Shown here: positions 41,820-49,035 of the stretch, piece after piece
Position numbering within the stretch: position 1 is the first letter of the stretch
How the letters are laid out: the number at the start of each line of letters is the position of its first letter
NCBI GenBank assembly: GCA_965217585.1
Contig: OZ244561.1
Span: 6,496,001 to 6,560,000 of the forward strand
Length of the DNA: 64,000 nt
Direction of reading: 5' to 3'
From: Candidatus Latescibacterota bacterium
GTDB lineage: Bacteria; Latescibacterota; UBA2968; UBA8231
Program-made: the position numbers and the translations under genes
Notes under the pieces: generated by a model
Databases searched by the model: none
Told to the model about the DNA's origin: nothing
What the model saw: the letters and a program-made list of their open reading frames with translations, nothing else

Positions 41820-42143
41820 TCAGGCATTGAGGCCACCGGAACCACCCGGACCACCAGAACCGCAATCCCGCCAGTAGGTCCGCACCATCTGCAAGATGTC
41901 CCAGAGTATGGTATCCTTAGCTACTTGATCGATCAACACGTGCAGCCTCGCGGCCTTCTCAGGTTCGATCAGCCCCAGTCCGCTCATCATCGTCAGGTGG
42001 TGGATCAAGCCCGTTTGCAACAACGTTCGGTTCATGTCCGAAAGGGGGATACTGCTTTTGTTGGCGAACTCCTCTTCGAGGCCGGCATAGAGTTCGGCCA
42101 AGCTGTGGGAAAGTGTGGTCTCGACTTTGTAAACTTTTTCCAT
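41820..42143 (-). CDS. Hypothetical 107-aa protein, possible ribbon-helix-helix N-terminus
   Basis: GAGG RBS; own promoter-like TTGACA-16-TATATT (42201-42174); beta-alpha-alpha pattern. Confidence 0.65.
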   Translation of the reverse strand: MEKVYKVETTLSHSLAELYAGLEEEFANKSSIPLSDMNRTLLQTGLIHHLTMMSGLGLIEPEKAARLHVLIDQVAKDTILWDILQMVRTYWRDCGSGGPGGSGGLNA

Positions 42144-42229: not shown

Positions 42230-43654
42230 TCATTTGGCGGTGATTCGGTATTTGCGGAGCAAATGTCGAAAGCGATCGTAGGTCAAGCCCAATTGCTGTG
42301 CCGCGTCTTTCTGCCGCCCTCCCACTTTGGCGAGCGCACCGTCGAGCAAGCCCCGCTCGACGCGCGCGACTTGCTCATCGAAACTGCCCCCATCGGGAAG
42401 GGCAACGCCACTGCCGCCGCGTACTTCCGGGGGCAAGTCCTCCACGACCACTTCATCTCCTTGCGCGACGCAGAGGGCGCGCTCGACGGCGAATTTGAGT
42501 TCGCGCACATTGCCCGGCCAAGTGTAGGTCTCGAGCGCGGCCAAAACGCCTTCGGCGAACGGGCGTCGTTCAATCGCAGGCACCTCGTCGCATAGCTGCT
42601 GAGTAAAGTAAGTAACCAAGGGCCGGATGTCCTCGGGCCTCTCCCGCAAGGGCGGTAGCTGGAGCACGCTAAACCGCAGGCGGTCGTAGAGGTCAGCGCG
42701 AAATTGCCCGCTAGCTATTTCCCGCTCCAGATCCGCGTTGGTTGCCGCCACGACGCGAACGTCAACGTGGATCGTCTGCGTCCCACCCGTGCGTTCAAAT
42801 TCTTGGTATTCTATAACGCGCAATACGTTTCTTTGGAAGTCCAGCGAAGTGTTGCCGATCTCGTCGAGAAAGAGCGTGCCGCCATCGGCGGCTTCAAAGC
42901 GGCCGTGGCGCATTTCGGCCGCGCCCGTAAAGGCCCCTTTCTCGTGGCCGAACAGCTCGCTTTCGAGCAAGGTATCCGATAGCGCCGCGCAGTTCATCTT
43001 GACAAAGGCCCGCTCGCGGCGATTGCTCCCGTAGTGCAAGGCGGCGGCGATCAATTCCTTGCCAGTGCCGCGCTCGCCGCAGATCAACACGGGCCGCGGT
43101 ATGGAGGCGATTTGTTCAACTTGCTCTAGCAGGTCCTGAATCAGGGAACTGCGGCTAACAATCTGATAGCGCTGACCTAGCTGGGTCCGGTAAAAGGTAT
43201 TGTCGCGGTCGAGAGTCTCGTTCTCAGCTTTGAGGCGAGCATTTTCGCGCAATACCGCCAACATCCGCTCGACCTTTTCCATCTCCACTTCGAGCTTGTC
43301 CTCAACGTACAAGTCCTTCTCGATAAAATCCGCCGCCCCGGCCTGCACCGCTTCGACCGCCAAGTCAACGCTTCCCTTGCCCGTGAGAATGATAACCGGC
43401 AGCTCGGCCCACTGCTTTTTGATCTCTTTCAACACTTCGAGGCCATTGGGCTGGCCAGCGCCAAAGTCAAAGTCCAGCACCACAAGTTCGACGTCCATCG
43501 GCCTAGCGGCTAGATGCCCGAGCAACCGCTGGCCATTGGAAAACGAGATGACTTCCTTGCCCAAACTGCTCAGCTTCTCCGCCAACATCTCGCGCAATTC
43601 CCGTTGGTCATCAGCTATTAAGACGGCTTTCTGTTTTTTGCCTACCATGACCAT
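42230..43654 (-). CDS. sigma54-dependent response regulator: REC plus PspF-like AAA+ plus HTH
   Basis: REC (IADD, VLD, LTG, IEK); GERGTGKE, ESELFGHEKGAFTGA, LFLDE, RVIEY, FRADLYDRL, WPGNVREL; PspF-like HTH QKDAAQQLGLTYDRFRHLLRKY. Confidence 0.9.
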   Translation of the reverse strand: MVMVGKKQKAVLIADDQRELREMLAEKLSSLGKEVISFSNGQRLLGHLAARPMDVELVVLDFDFGAGQPNGLEVLKEIKKQWAELPVIILTGKGSVDLAVEAVQAGAADFIEKDLYVEDKLEVEMEKVERMLAVLRENARLKAENETLDRDNTFYRTQLGQRYQIVSRSSLIQDLLEQVEQIASIPRPVLICGERGTGKELIAAALHYGSNRRERAFVKMNCAALSDTLLESELFGHEKGAFTGAAEMRHGRFEAADGGTLFLDEIGNTSLDFQRNVLRVIEYQEFERTGGTQTIHVDVRVVAATNADLEREIASGQFRADLYDRLRFSVLQLPPLRERPEDIRPLVTYFTQQLCDEVPAIERRPFAEGVLAALETYTWPGNVRELKFAVERALCVAQGDEVVVEDLPPEVRGGSGVALPDGGSFDEQVARVERGLLDGALAKVGGRQKDAAQQLGLTYDRFRHLLRKYRITAK

Positions 43655-43675: not shown

Positions 43676-45031
43676 CTAGGTCTGGCCGCCCGCGAAATTG
43701 AGCGGCAGATCGAGCCGAAAAACGGTCCCATGTCCCTTTCTGCTCTTGACGCGCAACACGCCCTGATGGGCCTGGGCAATGCGGCGCGCAATGCTCAAGC
43801 CATAGCCATTGCCCTGCTCCCTAGTGGTAAATCCAGGCTCGAATATCAATTCCAAATGCTCTTCCTCAATGCCTGGCCCATCGTCCTCGACCTCAATAAA
43901 GACCAGCGATTGCTCCTCGTCGTAACCAGTGCCCAGCACCACCCGGCCGCCGCGGTTTTCTTCGAGGATTTCCAAGGCGTTTAGGCAGAGGTTGGTAATG
44001 GCCTCGCGCAGCATCCGCTCGTCTGCCTCCACGCGCGGCAAGCCCTCTTGGACCCGCGTCTGGATCGCGGATTTCCAAGTTTGGCGATCAAATCCGGCGG
44101 CCACTCGTCGCACCAAGCGCCCGAGATCAATCACCGCCGGGTGGATTTTATCCGTTTTCATCGCTTCCAAGAACCCCACCCACTCGTCGTACAGAGCCTC
44201 GTATTCGCCCCCTAAGCGATTCAATTCCCCCCGCTGCGCCTCTTCGGCCTTGCGCCCCAACCCCCGCAAGCGGCTGCCGATGATCCCCATCAGGTTCTTG
44301 ATGCGATGCCCCTTCGTATAAAACCCCTCGTACACCTGCTCCTTTCCCAGCTCGACCATTTCCAGCGACAGACGCGCGAGGACTTGCGGAGCGCTTTGCT
44401 CAAATTCCTCGCAGATATGCTGGTACTCTTGCTCTAATTCAGGGGGTTTTACATGGCGAAAGAACAAACGGGCCAAGTTCGCGTACGGCTGACTGAGCTT
44501 GGGGTCGAGTTGGATGGCGACCTTGAATTCCCCCATCGCTCCCAACACCTGGCCGCCTTGCAGTAAGAGTTGGCCTAAGCTGTTGTGGCCAACTGCCGAA
44601 AGCGGGTTGAGCGCCAGCCCCTGGCGGAACGCGCGGATAGCTTCTCCACGCCGCTGCGGATCTTCGTTGTATTGACTGCCAAGAGCGAAAAAGACGTGAT
44701 CGAGAGCTGGGTATTCGCGTCCCTCCTCGGCCGCGCACACGATGGCTTCAAAGTGCGCCAGCGATCGCTCGCGGAACCGGGCGTTCCGCCGCCCTTGGCG
44801 CATTGCGAGCAAGCCGAGTTGGTAGTGGCTTTCTAGATGCCCGCTCGACGCGGCTGCTTCCAGCGCAGTAATGGCCGCTTGCTCGTCCCCCAGTTCCAAC
44901 AGACAAAGCCCTTTGCGATGCTGAAGCTCCAAGTCGTCGGGCTCCTGCGCTAGGCCGCGCTCGCACCACTCCAGCGCCTCGGCCCAACGCGCACCTTCAC
45001 CGGCCTCTACAGCGCAGTCGAGCCAATTCAC
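43676..45031 (-). CDS. Soluble TPR-repeat sensor histidine kinase
   Basis: TPRs in the N-terminal half; H-box GHRIKN, N-box NLCLNA, DDGPG, FEPGFTT, GNGYGL; no TM segment; GTG start. Confidence 0.88.
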   Translation of the reverse strand: MNWLDCAVEAGEGARWAEALEWCERGLAQEPDDLELQHRKGLCLLELGDEQAAITALEAAASSGHLESHYQLGLLAMRQGRRNARFRERSLAHFEAIVCAAEEGREYPALDHVFFALGSQYNEDPQRRGEAIRAFRQGLALNPLSAVGHNSLGQLLLQGGQVLGAMGEFKVAIQLDPKLSQPYANLARLFFRHVKPPELEQEYQHICEEFEQSAPQVLARLSLEMVELGKEQVYEGFYTKGHRIKNLMGIIGSRLRGLGRKAEEAQRGELNRLGGEYEALYDEWVGFLEAMKTDKIHPAVIDLGRLVRRVAAGFDRQTWKSAIQTRVQEGLPRVEADERMLREAITNLCLNALEILEENRGGRVVLGTGYDEEQSLVFIEVEDDGPGIEEEHLELIFEPGFTTREQGNGYGLSIARRIAQAHQGVLRVKSRKGHGTVFRLDLPLNFAGGQT

Positions 45032-45034
45032 GGT

Positions 45035-45403
45035 CTAGCCTTGCTCTCGCGGGTCTTGGCGCTCCCAAGGTTTAGATTCTGCCCCGTCCATATGGTCGAT
45101 CTTTTCGCTGAGAGCGATCATCACGTCCTGTACCTCAGTCAGCCGCTGCTCGACTGCGGCCAATCGCTCCCGTAGCTCGTCTGACTCAATACCCTTGTCC
45201 TCGGATACAGTCGCCTTGAGCTTGAGGTAGTCGGCAACTTTGGCGATAACAAAAATCGCCACGGCAGCCAACAAGAGCGGCGTCAGAATGACGGGGCCCA
45301 TCAAACCATAGGGGCCGGGGTGGCTAGAAAACGCAGAGTAAAAAAGAACGCACAACGCGATACCAGTGAAGAATCCGAAGACGATCCCCTTATTCTTGTC
45401 CAT
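45035..45403 (-). CDS. Psp-operon membrane/coiled-coil protein, paralog 1
   Basis: 2 TM then EQRLTEVQDVMIALSEKID; AAGGAG RBS. Confidence 0.8.
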   Translation of the reverse strand: MDKNKGIVFGFFTGIALCVLFYSAFSSHPGPYGLMGPVILTPLLLAAVAIFVIAKVADYLKLKATVSEDKGIESDELRERLAAVEQRLTEVQDVMIALSEKIDHMDGAESKPWERQDPREQG

Positions 45404-45858
45404 AATTTAGCTCCTTTCCCTCGCCTCCAGCCGGTCGAATTTCTCGCTAAGGGCGATCATTACGTCCTGTACCTCGGTCAGCCGCTGATCCAGAGTGCTT
45501 ACCCCGTCTCGTAATTCTTTCGCCAGCGATTTTCTAATGGCCTCCTTACCTGACCTTTTACCTTCCATTTTAGGTACTCGATAATTTCGACCGCGACCCA
45601 ACCCGCTATTGTGATTGCCGTCACCGGGACTAAGTATTCAGTAGCCGCGACTTTACCTAGCACAAATGCAAAAGCCGCCAATCCAATGAGTGGTATCAGC
45701 AAACCTATCCCGCCCAGAAGAACTACGACTGTCATCTCTCTTTTATTCATGGTTTAGCCTCTCTTTTCGTTCATCTTTCTCTTCGTCCCTACCCCATCCA
45801 TATAGTCGATTTTCTCGCTGAGGACGATCATCACGTCCTGCACCTCGGTCAGCCGCTG
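45095..45858. repeat. Three 54-bp imperfect direct repeats (45095-45148, 45434-45487, 45805-45858), coding
   Basis: GTCGA...TCGCT...CGATCAT.ACGTCCTG.ACCTC.GTCAGCCGCTG in all three; encodes the shared QRLTEVQDVMIxLSEKxD. Confidence 0.9.
45407..45750 (-). pseudogene. Psp-operon membrane/coiled-coil protein, paralog 2, split by a frameshift
   Basis: TM part in ORF 45499..45750 and the DQRLTEVQDVMIALSEKFD part in ORF 45407..45601 (different frame); total span 344 nt is one short of a multiple of 3. Confidence 0.75.
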
Positions 45859-46017
45859 CTCAACTCGCTCTAGCCGCTTGACGATCAAATCCTCTTCCTC
45901 TTTGGCTTTTTTGTCTCGTCGCTTGCGGCTCGAATAATACTTGTTGCCCCAATTGACCAATCCACTGCACAGGATGATGAGACATACGCCAATGGCGACC
46001 TGCAAAAACCAATTCAT
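45754..46017 (-). CDS. Psp-operon membrane/coiled-coil protein, paralog 3 (PspB-like topology)
   Basis: 1 TM, basic linker, EQRLTEVQDVMIVLSEKID; GGAGG RBS. Confidence 0.8.
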   Translation of the reverse strand: MNWFLQVAIGVCLIILCSGLVNWGNKYYSSRKRRDKKAKEEEDLIVKRLERVEQRLTEVQDVMIVLSEKIDYMDGVGTKRKMNEKRG

Positions 46018-46119: not shown

Positions 46120-46638
46120 TCAGGCGCTTTCGACGCCCCGACTCCAGTGTTTTTCGTGCGCGAAAAGCACTTCTGGAAAGCGATAGACGATCAGGCCCGA
46201 ATCGGTTATTTCGACCTCGACGAACCCCCCATCGGCCAAGCGCTTGAGAATCTCCGCAGCTTCCTCGACCGTCAGTCCGGTATCGGCCGCAGTTTCGGTC
46301 ACCGTCAGGCGGCCACTTCTCTTCTGGGCCAAGCGCACTACGCGATTTTGTTGACGTCGGTAGCGGACCAAGTGCGCGGCCGCATCGAGCTTTTTGGCCA
46401 GTATCCAGAGTAAGCTGCCGAAAATGGTCTGGGTGACGCCAATGGCAAAAAACTCGAAATGGGAATCTGCACCATCGGCATGGAGGATTTGAAACAGTCC
46501 GTAGAGCATAAACCCCAGCCCTATCGGCACCATCGGCACGGCCATTACCTTGAGAAAAAGAGCGCCTAGGCGCTTGAATCCCCCTTCCATAGCACTTCTT
46601 ACCTCGCTTTTTGCCGCGTTGGGCGGTCTCATCGTCAT
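46120..46638 (-). CDS. Membrane protein (2 TM) with a C-terminal winged-helix-like domain
   Basis: Two hydrophobic helices, then GRLTVTETAADTGLTVEEAAEILKRL...DSGLIVYRFPE; start 46638 or 46590. Confidence 0.75.
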   Translation of the reverse strand: MTMRPPNAAKSEVRSAMEGGFKRLGALFLKVMAVPMVPIGLGFMLYGLFQILHADGADSHFEFFAIGVTQTIFGSLLWILAKKLDAAAHLVRYRRQQNRVVRLAQKRSGRLTVTETAADTGLTVEEAAEILKRLADGGFVEVEITDSGLIVYRFPEVLFAHEKHWSRGVESA

Positions 46639-46691: not shown

Positions 46692-47369
46692 TTACTTATC
46701 TTTTTTCATCTTGTCCTTTAAAGCCTTCAATTCGTCGTCAACGCTGTGATCTGCTTCGATTTGGCGGATCTCCTTCTCAACGTCTTCCATCTCGCCCGAA
46801 ATCTCCACGTGCGCGGCAGCCTCTGCCTCGCTCTCTTCTACTTTCTGCTCAAAGCGCTCAAAACTGGAAAAGGCATCCTGACCCAACCCGGAAATGCTCT
46901 GGGCCAGACGCTTGCGGGCCTGGGCAGCTTGGTGGCGAGCGATCAACGTGCCCTGTCGGGTCCGTGCTTCTTCGAGCTTGGTCTTTAGCTCGCGTAACTG
47001 CTCGCGCAATTGCTCGGCCGTCTGCCGACTCTCCTCCACGGCCGGAGCCAGATCCTCAGCAGCTTTAGCAAACACCGCTTTGCGCTCCAGCGCGCGTCGC
47101 GCCAGCACATCCTCGCCCGCTTCCACCGCCCATTCGGCCTTGCGCTGCCATTCGGCGACCTGGCTTTGCTTGTCGTTGAACTGGCGCTCGAGCCGCTTGT
47201 GATTGGCCACAGCAGTCCCTACCGAGGCCGTGGCCTTGCCGACTGCCTCTTCCATGTCCCGCACCATTTGGCGGATCATCTTGTCCGGCTCTTCGGCCCG
47301 GTCGAGCATTTCGTTGATATTGGACTTGAGGATATCACTTATCCTCGCAAAGGCTCCCTTAGCCATCAT
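46692..47369 (-). CDS. pspA: PspA/IM30 (ESCRT-III-like) family protein
   Basis: FARISDILKSNINEMLDRAEEPDKMIRQ, AVEAGEDVLARRAL, FERFEQKV, VDDELKALK; AAGGAGG RBS. Confidence 0.93.
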   Translation of the reverse strand: MMAKGAFARISDILKSNINEMLDRAEEPDKMIRQMVRDMEEAVGKATASVGTAVANHKRLERQFNDKQSQVAEWQRKAEWAVEAGEDVLARRALERKAVFAKAAEDLAPAVEESRQTAEQLREQLRELKTKLEEARTRQGTLIARHQAAQARKRLAQSISGLGQDAFSSFERFEQKVEESEAEAAAHVEISGEMEDVEKEIRQIEADHSVDDELKALKDKMKKDK

Positions 47370-47414: not shown

Positions 47415-47430
47415 TGCAAAGGCCGTGCCA
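47415..47430 (-). promoter_or_regulatory. sigma54 (-24/-12) promoter of the pspA operon
   Basis: Minus strand TGGCACG-GCCT-TTGCA matches the consensus TGGCACG-N4-TTGCW exactly, 46 nt upstream of the pspA ATG. Confidence 0.9.
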
Positions 47431-47508: not shown

Positions 47509-47544
47509 TGGCCAGATTCGCCACTTGGCTGGCGTCATTGGCCA
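47509..47544. promoter_or_regulatory. Tandem TGGC-N7-GCCA sites, putative enhancer (UAS) for the bEBP
   Basis: TGGCCAGATTCGCCA (47509-47523) and TGGCGTCATTGGCCA (47530-47544), 21 bp apart, about -105 to -140 relative to the sigma54 start. Confidence 0.7.
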
Positions 47545-47592
47545 TTTTCGCTCCTTTAGTTATTATAACAAATCTTCAAAAAGGATCTTGCC

Positions 47593-49035
47593 ATGGCCAA
47601 TCCATTGGTCTTGATCGGCTTGGGTGTCTATCTCGCGGTGATGCTCGGCGTTGGCCTATACGCTGGCCGCCGCGTCCGCAGCTCGACCGACTTCATCGTC
47701 GCCGGCCAACGCCTGCCCCTGTTGCTCTGCACCGCAACTCTTGCTGCGACGTGGTTTGGCGGTGGAATCTGCATTGGTGCTGCAAGTGCTGCATACAAGG
47801 GCGGCGTCCTCGCGGTCATTGCCGACCCTTTTGGCGCGGCTTTGTGTCTGTTTATCGCCGGCCTCTTTTACGTGCGGATGATGCGGCGCATGGGCTTGAT
47901 GACGATCGCATCCTTTTTTAGCCGCCGCTTCGGCCCGCGGGCGGGCCTGCTGGCCAGCCTTTGCACCATTCCCGCCTATGTTGGCTGGACCGGCTCGCTC
48001 TTGGTGGCCTTTGGGCGAATCCTGCAGAGCCTCACCGGCATCGATCCCGCCATCGGCATCTGTGCAGCCGCAGTCATCGTGCTGATCTACACTTGGGCCG
48101 GCGGCATGTGGGCTGTCACGCTAACCGACTTCATCCAAGTAACCGTCCTCGTACTAGGGTTGTTTATTTTAACGCCGATTCTCCTCGGCGACATGGGCGG
48201 CTGGGAGGCCCTCGTCGCCCAAATCCCGGCCTCCCGCTTCGATTTCTACCCTCGCGGCGACGCGGCCAGTTGGTTGGCCTATGCGCGCGACTGGCTGGTC
48301 ATCGGCCTCGGCAACCTAGCGGGCCAAGACCTAATCCAGCGCAGTCTGTCCAGCCGCGACGAAAAGGTGGCCTACCGCAGCGCTTACCTCGCTGGGCTGC
48401 TTTATATAACGGTGGGGCTATTGCCCGTTTTTCTTGGCATGGCGGGTGCGATCGTCCTTCCGGATTTGGCCGATCCCGATCTAGTCATGATGGCCCTCGC
48501 ACTAAAATATCTCCCGGATCTAGCCTTGGTCCTCTTTATGGGTGCCCTCGTCTCAGCCCTCCTGTCCAGCGCCGACAGCGCCCTCCTCGCTCCAGCGAGC
48601 GTCATTGGTTGGGATCTCCTTCACTACTTCAAACCCGATGCCGAAGAGCGGTCGTCGCTGCGCCTGACGCGCTTGTCCGTCCTCCTCTTGGGCGCGGTAT
48701 CTCTACTGTTGGCCCTCCAAACTACTTCGATTTACGACTTGATGGTCGACTCTTGGTCCGTGCTCCTCGCCTCGCTATTCGTCCCACTAACCGCTGGCTT
48801 GTGGTGGCCCAAAAGCAACGGCCCCGGGGCCTTAGCTTCCATAGGGGTCGGCCTGTGCGCCTGGCAGGTCCTGAGGATGCTCTCCGCGGATTTGCCGGCC
48901 GACCTTTTGGCCGTGCCCTTTTCCGCCCTCGCCTTAGTAATAGTCAGCTTACTAACCCAAAAACAGGCCCCGCCACAGCCCTTACTCGATGCCGAGGGAC
49001 GTCCCCTGCCCTATAAAAACCGCTTGGGCATTTAA
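47593..49035 (+). CDS. Sodium:solute symporter (SSS, choline-transporter-like)
   Basis: DFIVAGQRL, ATWFGG, YTWAGGMWAVTLTDFIQ, QRSLS, SALLSSADS; about 13 TM. Confidence 0.9.
   Translation: MANPLVLIGLGVYLAVMLGVGLYAGRRVRSSTDFIVAGQRLPLLLCTATLAATWFGGGICIGAASAAYKGGVLAVIADPFGAALCLFIAGLFYVRMMRRMGLMTIASFFSRRFGPRAGLLASLCTIPAYVGWTGSLLVAFGRILQSLTGIDPAIGICAAAVIVLIYTWAGGMWAVTLTDFIQVTVLVLGLFILTPILLGDMGGWEALVAQIPASRFDFYPRGDAASWLAYARDWLVIGLGNLAGQDLIQRSLSSRDEKVAYRSAYLAGLLYITVGLLPVFLGMAGAIVLPDLADPDLVMMALALKYLPDLALVLFMGALVSALLSSADSALLAPASVIGWDLLHYFKPDAEERSSLRLTRLSVLLLGAVSLLLALQTTSIYDLMVDSWSVLLASLFVPLTAGLWWPKSNGPGALASIGVGLCAWQVLRMLSADLPADLLAVPFSALALVIVSLLTQKQAPPQPLLDAEGRPLPYKNRLGI

Follow-up and report, generated by a model that had tools for sequence, protein, structure and literature searches.

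Two textbook arrangements are known for how the Psp (phage shock protein) response is controlled. In proteobacteria, PspA sequesters a sigma54 activator that has no receiver domain (REC), while in Firmicutes the two-component system Lia works at an ordinary promoter, LiaR acting at a sigma-A promoter. The present analysis concerns a pspA (membrane-stress) operon of Candidatus Latescibacterota bacterium, located in a 64,000-nt stretch of contig OZ244561.1 (assembly GCA_965217585.1, positions 6,496,001 to 6,560,000; this whole stretch is called the window, and coordinates without a locus label refer to it). The last gene of the operon (42230..43654, minus strand) encodes a regulator of 474 amino acids (aa), which very probably switches on the pspA operon by a wiring unlike that of E. 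coli. The locus combines both textbook arrangements, as an activator of the sigma54 type that belongs to PspF's sister lineage appears to be driven by its own soluble histidine kinase with tetratricopeptide repeats (TPR). We consider it quite probable that a dedicated two-component circuit acts here on the pspA operon, and that the regulator represents a REC-bearing sister lineage of PspF in which the receiver is ancestral and canonical PspF is the derived form.

Compared with PspF and pspABCDE of E. coli, the system of the window has the same kind of sigma54 AAA+ activator, pspA as target, a sigma54 promoter and a pair of upstream enhancer sites whose half-site is related. It differs in that the regulator has a receiver and a kinase and lacks W56 and L52, and in that its gene closes the operon and points the same way as pspA, whereas pspF of E. 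coli is divergent from pspA. The E. coli Psp system also has PspB and PspC, but neither was detectable among the operon proteins of the window (no Pfam match at E <= 0.01). The architecture of REC, helical linker and AAA+ is shared with NtrC1 of Aquifex aeolicus and with DctD; these proteins have other targets, and in comparison with them the window protein has a longer linker and an AAA+ and helix-turn-helix (HTH) region closer to PspF. ZraSR-ZraP of E. coli, in which ZraP, the effector that is induced, exerts feedback on the kinase ZraS, is likewise a sigma54 two-component system for envelope stress, and ZraS gave the best fold match to the core of the window kinase. However, ZraS sits in the membrane and has its sensor in the periplasm while the window kinase is soluble with a TPR sensor, ZraR falls outside the PspF superclade, and the effector in the window system is PspA. 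LiaRS-LiaIH of Bacillus subtilis is similar in the two-component induction of a PspA homologue and in the small membrane proteins of its locus, LiaR being a REC plus winged-HTH regulator according to the accessible parts of two surveys (PMC9239133, PMC11237479); LiaS is a membrane kinase, and the Lia system has neither sigma54 nor an AAA+ activator.

In the accessible parts of these Psp surveys, PspF is described as NtrC-AAA plus HTH, together with ACT or PAS N-terminal variants and with receiver-HTH two-component systems (PMC11237479, PMC9239133). A receiver-AAA+ activator with a TPR kinase was not seen in those parts of the two phylogenomic surveys, one of which (PMC11237479) may list similar architectures in its web app or supplements; the accessible part of the supplementary list holds PspF-NtrC-AAA+FIS-HTH forms only, and one of the surveys made no dedicated search for PspF or two-component systems. 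The accessible text of a 2010 paper on Psp evolution (PMC3041696) makes no mention of an N-terminal, receiver or regulatory domain, or of W56. Literature searches coupling Latescibacter with phage shock gave no paper, and those on pspA under an NtrC-like activator and a histidine kinase gave, as far as the listed entries go, nothing matching this wiring.

The regulator and the pspA operon

The open reading frame (ORF), Pfam, NCBIfam and PDB matches and a family alignment (A4) identify the product of 42230..43654 as a REC / sigma54-AAA+ / Fis-type HTH response-regulator enhancer-binding protein, the only enhancer-binding protein encoded in the window. Its receiver occupies residues 11-116 (43307..43624, minus strand; Pfam Response_reg, 5e-19), and HMMER aligns D61 with the acceptor aspartate of NtrC1. 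D15, D16, D61 (and D63), T91 and K113 are present in the window protein and in all 14 aligned family members, so the earlier note made on this DNA was right to call the receiver apparently intact, and D61 is the likely phospho-acceptor as judged from the alignment. A long, highly conserved helical linker reaches to about residue 160 and is followed by the sigma54-interaction AAA+ domain with its lid at residues 165-414 (42413..43162, minus strand; Sigma54_activat, PF00158, at 165-328, 9.4e-65; AAA_lid_14 at 337-414). This domain has the Walker A motif GERGTGKE, the Walker B motif LFLDE and a GAFTGA motif that is invariant in the family alignment. The Fis-type HTH lies at residues 429-460 (42275..42370, minus strand; HTH_8, PF02954, 5.2e-05), and its recognition helix is near-identical to that of E. 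coli PspF, the protein of the E. coli K-12 locus (L079) with which it was aligned. In canonical PspF, the AAA+ domain begins at the N-terminus without any regulatory domain, whereas in the regulator it is preceded by the receiver and the linker.

The likeness of the AAA+ and HTH regions to PspF, which was the starting point of the earlier note, was confirmed by several comparisons. The strings on which it had been based (GERGTGKELIAAALHY, RVIEYQEFERTGG, FRADLYDRLRF and the C-terminal LGLTYDRFRHLLRKY) are all present in the translation, and the E. coli PspF strings quoted in the note agree with the real K-12 pspF (L079:6936-7913). E. coli PspF is the best single match for the AAA+ domain (PDB chains 2vii/2bjw, 257 bits over query residues 168-395, HMMER), the identity being 48% to E. 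coli PspF vs 39% to NtrC. Over the full length, the best PDB match is NtrC1 (4l4u, 267.6 bits), with REC, linker and AAA+ all aligned. The PspF equivalog TIGR02974 is the top NCBIfam model at 365.8 bits, under its curated cut-off of 443.55. This cut-off was passed by all 13 canonical PspF-clade proteins tested (449.9-541 bits) and by none of 15 tested clade-B (the sister clade described below) or outgroup proteins (305-365 bits).

The features seen are not due to chance, as at least 120 close relatives (57-94% identity) were listed in a protein search and the gene recurs in 43 related loci. Over the full length, the AtoC and NtrC models score nearly as high as the PspF model (359.7 and 350.9 bits), and relatives from the protein search carry database names such as sigma-54-dependent Fis family transcriptional regulator (also in shortened versions), DNA-binding response regulator, NtrC family response regulator (with or without the prefix DNA-binding) and NtrX, with PspF appearing once. 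Such scores and names would suit a two-component system of generic NtrC/AtoC type that has other target genes and is a neighbour of pspA by position only. However, all generic models stay far under their curated cut-offs (NtrC 350.9 vs 558.6; AtoC 359.7 vs 714; ZraR 302.5 vs 760; NtrX 314.5 vs 600), and the genomic context described below also speaks against this explanation.

The genes pspA, a 172-aa protein, small membrane proteins, the TPR histidine kinase and, last, the regulator follow one another in the same direction, with intergenic gaps of 3-102 nt; 21 nt lie between the end of the kinase gene and the start of the regulator gene, and no convincing terminator was found inside the operon. 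The first gene, pspA (46692..47366, minus strand; 224 aa), starts with ATG at 47366, preceded by AAGGAGG. Its product matches PspA_IM30 (PF04012, 4.3e-47, 161 bits; 12-sequence alignment A3) and scores 164.1 bits with TIGR02977, under the cut-off of 242.95.

One scan of species-representative genomes yielded 78 related loci, 43 of which encode a regulator 69-98% identical to that of the window; almost all of these 43 are from Latescibacterota and Gemmatimonadota assemblies. In 39/43 family loci, pspA, the 172-aa protein (directly after pspA), the kinase and the regulator occur on one strand in the same order, with 1 to 3 small proteins in between. Among the other four, L004, L041 and L043 are cut by contig ends and L031 is without a kinase. 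The kinase is thus found in 41/43 family loci (the 39 complete loci plus L004 and L041), while the contig of L043 begins inside the regulator gene.

Downstream of the regulator, a gene for a 107-aa protein without any family match (41820-42143, minus strand) follows in most family loci. It is preceded by its own sigma70-like promoter (TTGACA-16-TATATT, 42201-42174), so the operon probably ends with the regulator and the 107-aa gene is probably transcribed on its own.

Promoter and enhancer upstream of pspA

A sigma54 promoter, TGGCACGGCCTTTGCA (47415..47430, minus strand), precedes the start codon of pspA by about 50 nt; no other site in the 64-kb window fits the sigma54 consensus (TGGCAC-N5-TTGCW) without a mismatch. 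The strict pattern was found 65-138 nt upstream of pspA in 36/40 family loci and one-mismatch versions in three more; in the remaining locus, L036, the pspA start is wrongly called. About 80-115 nt upstream of the -24 element lies an enhancer, or upstream activating sequence (UAS), made of two tandem palindromes TGGC-N7-GCCA (47509..47544). The tandem pattern with a spacer of 5-8 nt has one match in the window and none in 100 shuffles; with a fixed 7-nt spacer there is no match, the spacer in the window being 6 nt. The tandem enhancer occurs exactly once each in 32/84 loci, all of which are family loci, and every one of these sites is upstream of pspA. Across the family loci, the arms are conserved and the inner seven bases vary.

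These observations weigh heavily against a generic system that controls other genes. The pspA gene order is kept down to 69% identity of the regulator, the window's single perfect sigma54 promoter and its single tandem enhancer both lie upstream of pspA, the enhancer recurs upstream of pspA alone, and in the tree described below the AAA+ domain groups with PspF and not with NtrC or AtoC of E. coli. A generic system is therefore very improbable and this explanation is largely refuted.

According to the accessible text of PMC3709507, E. coli pspA has two UASs. In the pspF-pspA intergenic region of E. coli K-12 (L079 7918-7950), we found AATTCGCCA and AATTCGCTA, copies of AATTCGC(C/T)A that are 20 nt apart and lie about 65-95 nt upstream of the E. 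coli TGGCAC; they correspond to the reverse complement of the family half-site TGGCGAAT. The likeness of these half-sites fits the near-identical HTH recognition helices and, as a comparison of sequences, suggests that DNA recognition is common to PspF and its sister lineage.

On the other side of the enhancer, a divergent ORF of 480 aa (47593-49035, plus strand) encodes a hydrophobic, membrane-protein-like product. Its sigma70-like promoter (47538-47566, plus strand) overlaps the enhancer, so binding of the activator could also affect the divergent gene. In E. coli, binding of PspF represses pspF (accessible part of PMC3709507).

The W56 loop and the direction of change

In E. coli PspF, Y51, L52 and W56 form the docking patch for PspA, with Y51 seen as the primary contact (PMC3791423, accessible part). 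The equivalent loop of the regulator comprises residues 207-217 (HYGSNRRERAF; 43004..43036, minus strand). HMMER against PDB PspF and the MAFFT alignment agree in placing H50-Y51-L52-S53-S54-R55-W56 of PspF opposite H207-Y208-G209-S210-N211-R212-R213, which bears out the replacement of W56 by Arg put forward in the earlier note. Two of the three residues of the hydrophobic patch are therefore replaced (L52 by Gly209 and W56 by Arg213), while Y51 is kept as Y208. Across the window family, the loop strings have R, S or A at the W56 position and Y, F, H or S at the Y208 position. The importance that the note gave to W56 agrees with the accessible text of PMC3791423, where E. coli PspF W56A alone escapes inhibition by PspA and W56C retains weak PspA binding.

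A search of the whole library with the AAA+ and HTH regions only returned a mixture of receiver-bearing and short proteins at 45-55% identity. For a first tree, the window protein was pooled with 8 reference proteins from E. coli, the activators encoded at the loci and 150 library matches, giving 240 proteins; after removal of 27 proteins without exactly one long AAA+ match, of near-duplicate family rows and of domains <200 aa, 184 domains were analyzed with FastTree. A more careful IQ-TREE analysis used 84 rows: the clade of interest contributed 49 of its 54 rows, 5 near-duplicates from the family having been removed, and 35 rows represented the rest.

In the IQ-TREE result, canonical PspF and a sister clade form a joint clade of 48 rows (support 100/94). 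Canonical PspF itself (clade A, 14 rows, 100/99) includes E. coli PspF and the activator of L059, whose neighbours are pspA-pspC-pspB-pspC; all 14 rows are without REC and all 14 have the Trp. The sister clade (clade B, 34 rows, 100/93) consists of 27 REC-bearing proteins, 5 short ones and 2 fragments, and the Trp occurs in 0/34. The window family sits inside clade B (99/96), and NtrC, AtoC, ZraR, GlrR, NorR, FhlA and TyrR of E. coli fall outside the joint clade. The test named in the earlier note, whether the protein would cluster with PspF or with generic NtrC/AtoC proteins, thus came out in favour of PspF as regards the grouping, but the canonical PspF clade excludes the window protein. Because the curated cut-off of TIGR02974 was failed and the protein falls in clade B, the regulator is PspF-like and belongs to the sister lineage of PspF, not to the PspF family as curated.

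The distribution of REC and Trp on this tree does not support the wording of the earlier note, in which a PspF-like protein had gained REC and lost the Trp. The Trp is absent from all 36 outgroup rows and changes state once on the whole tree, and Fitch parsimony on the TyrR-rooted tree reconstructs a protein with receiver and without Trp for the ancestor shared by A and B, for that of B alone and for the family node. When REC plus linker (residues 1-160) was used as the query, the 8 best non-family matches all came from clade B (132 down to 59 bits) and proteins outside clade B scored <=55 bits. Since the REC-plus-linker segment and the AAA+ domain have the same nearest relatives, the receiver appears to have been inherited together with AAA+ and not recently gained. 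In the simplest history read from these sequences, the receiver was most likely lost and the Trp patch acquired on the way to canonical PspF, while the window lineage kept its receiver and never had a PspA-docking Trp; the order of events given in the note, a gain of REC and a loss of Trp, is most likely reversed.

The opposite history would be that a canonical, PspA-sequestered PspF acquired a receiver and then lost W56, control moving from PspA to phosphorylation. The closeness of AAA+ and HTH to PspF and the tie of the gene to pspA fit it, and an approximately unbiased (AU) test with the family as immediate sister of canonical PspF did not reject that placement (p = 0.223). Even so, with the family placed as immediate sister of PspF, a gain of Trp on the PspF stem costs fewer changes. 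The position of the family outside the Trp-bearing clade and inside a clade rich in receivers, the Trp-less outgroups, the single Trp change, the REC-bearing and Trp-less ancestor and the clade-B origin of the best REC-plus-linker matches all speak against a secondary gain, which we regard as quite improbable.

In addition to the AU result, several points weigh against a dedicated circuit with an ancestral receiver. The direction of change hinges on a root outside the clade of PspF plus its sister, the tree being unrooted in itself; the rows of the tree were picked as best matches to the window protein; and the bootstrap of the careful tree is not fully settled. Adjacency to pspA holds in 2/5 clade-B lineages of known context (the window family and L046), and clade-B activators of the other three (L042, L044 and L058) have no pspA within the stretch scanned. 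In L031 (6265-8419), a contig of low coverage, the regulator gene comes right after a shortened pspA (176 aa), and the 172-aa protein, the small proteins and the kinase are missing through deletion or assembly collapse. The pairing of kinase and regulator is suggested by gene adjacency and conservation, both of which are read from sequence. Finally, because Y208 is retained at the position of the primary PspA contact, control in trans by PspA may persist.

This last point leads to the alternative that the regulator depends on phosphorylation and is also damped by PspA acting on AAA+ through Tyr208 or another surface. The main docking role of Y51 and the weak PspA binding left in W56C (both PMC3791423, accessible part) agree with it, as does the Y208 position, which is kept as Y, F, H or S in the family. 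A possible precedent for PspA regulation without the Trp is the clade-B activator of L046 (5243-7960, a Desulfobacterales assembly), which lacks both a receiver and a Trp at the W56 position and is divergent from pspA-pspA, an uncharacterised gene and a Band_7 (SPFH) gene; the W56 docking model leaves this further Psp wiring unexplained. Against dual control stand the replacement of both L52 and W56, the lack of Trp at the W56 position throughout the family, the escape of E. coli W56A from PspA by that change alone (PMC3791423, accessible part), and the receiver and dedicated kinase, which already give on/off control. On balance we think such dual control unlikely, and we retain a dedicated two-component circuit as the preferred reading.

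The kinase, the proposed circuit and the operon membrane proteins

The gene directly upstream of the regulator (43676..45031, minus strand; Pfam TPR and HATPase_c) encodes a kinase of 451 aa without a membrane segment. An AlphaFold2 model (mean pLDDT 85.4) gives TPR helices at residues 1-193, then a long helix leading to a DHp domain of two helices at 238-291 and a CA domain at 299-443. H242 (in GHRIKNLMG), N347 and the G-boxes are invariant in 14 aligned kinases, and the best fold matches in PDB are the cytoplasmic part of ZraS (9jfj, E 2.3e-12), CckA and the DHp-CA part of HK853. The protein is a bona fide soluble kinase, and its TPR domain is the only candidate sensor.

Control by phosphorylation is well supported by this context. 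The earlier claim that control had moved to phosphorylation is hence plausible as far as the intact, conserved receiver and the kinase gene directly upstream in the operon are concerned, but not as a secondary shift. In the circuit that we propose, the TPR kinase would autophosphorylate on H242 and then pass the phosphate to D61 of the regulator. Since NtrC1 is the best full-length match, the unphosphorylated receiver would be expected to repress assembly, and phosphorylation of D61, by analogy with NtrC1 and DctD, would free the AAA+ domain to assemble on the tandem enhancer, to which the HTH of the regulator would bind. At the cost of ATP, the assembled activator would open the sigma54 promoter, from which the operon would then be transcribed all the way from pspA through the genes for the 172-aa protein, the small membrane proteins and the kinase to that of the regulator, giving positive autoregulation. 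Because the kinase is soluble and has no membrane segment, we infer that membrane stress is read through the TPR domain, most likely by contact with PspA and/or with the cytoplasmic tails of the operon membrane proteins.

A further version, which is possible but doubtful, is that PspA or the conserved cytoplasmic helices of the small proteins bind the TPR domain of the kinase and keep the kinase off, that membrane damage draws them away and so releases phosphorylation, and that PspF is a stripped-down descendant of such a system. If so, PspA control would act one step ahead of the activator, the circuit being either preserved or reinvented, and canonical PspF would have discarded receiver and kinase and captured PspA directly, as a regulatory domain acting in trans, through the new Trp patch.

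Two intact genes between the kinase and the 172-aa gene encode small membrane proteins of 122 aa (45035..45403, minus strand) and 87 aa (45754..46017, minus strand) that share a conserved C-terminal helix motif (RLTEVQDVMIALSEKID); the 122-aa protein matches no Pfam or NCBIfam family. Three-frame translation revealed a third paralogue between them (45407..45750, minus strand), split over two frames into a membrane part (45499-45750) and a motif part (45407-45601); the frame changes near an A-rich stretch. Either a pseudogene with a frameshift or a mistake in the assembly accounts for this, and L030, a 98%-identical locus, has no gene at this position. In alignment A1, the small proteins have 1 or 2 membrane helices followed by a strongly conserved C-terminal helix (RLTDVQDVMIALSEK-like; consensus RLxExExRLTDVQDVMIALSEKxDRxE). 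Their identification as PspB or PspC was tried and rejected, as hhalign against E. coli PspB gave a probability of 6.6% and 13 small proteins had no Pfam match to PspB or PspC at E <= 10; the likeness to PspB is one of layout only, a membrane helix and then a short cytoplasmic helix.

The 172-aa protein (46120..46638, minus strand; alignment A5) is predicted to consist of a transmembrane helical hairpin and a C-terminal winged helix (AlphaFold2, pLDDT 72.9), the latter being cytoplasmic in the model. A PDB fold search gave generic winged-helix matches only, all with E > 0.001, including ArsR and MarR regulators and, as a lead, an ESCRT-II subunit, and ESM Atlas gave unnamed clusters only, from Latescibacterota, Myxococcota and Actinomycetota. 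As far as this model goes, the protein may serve PspA as a partner or as its anchor in the membrane.

The TPR kinase, the membrane winged-helix protein and the small membrane proteins are thus candidate stress sensors or PspA partners outside the described families. With the dedicated two-component circuit as the preferred reading, the locus offers a testable comparison for the origin of trans-regulation of PspF, in which canonical PspF would have lost the receiver and gained the Trp patch.

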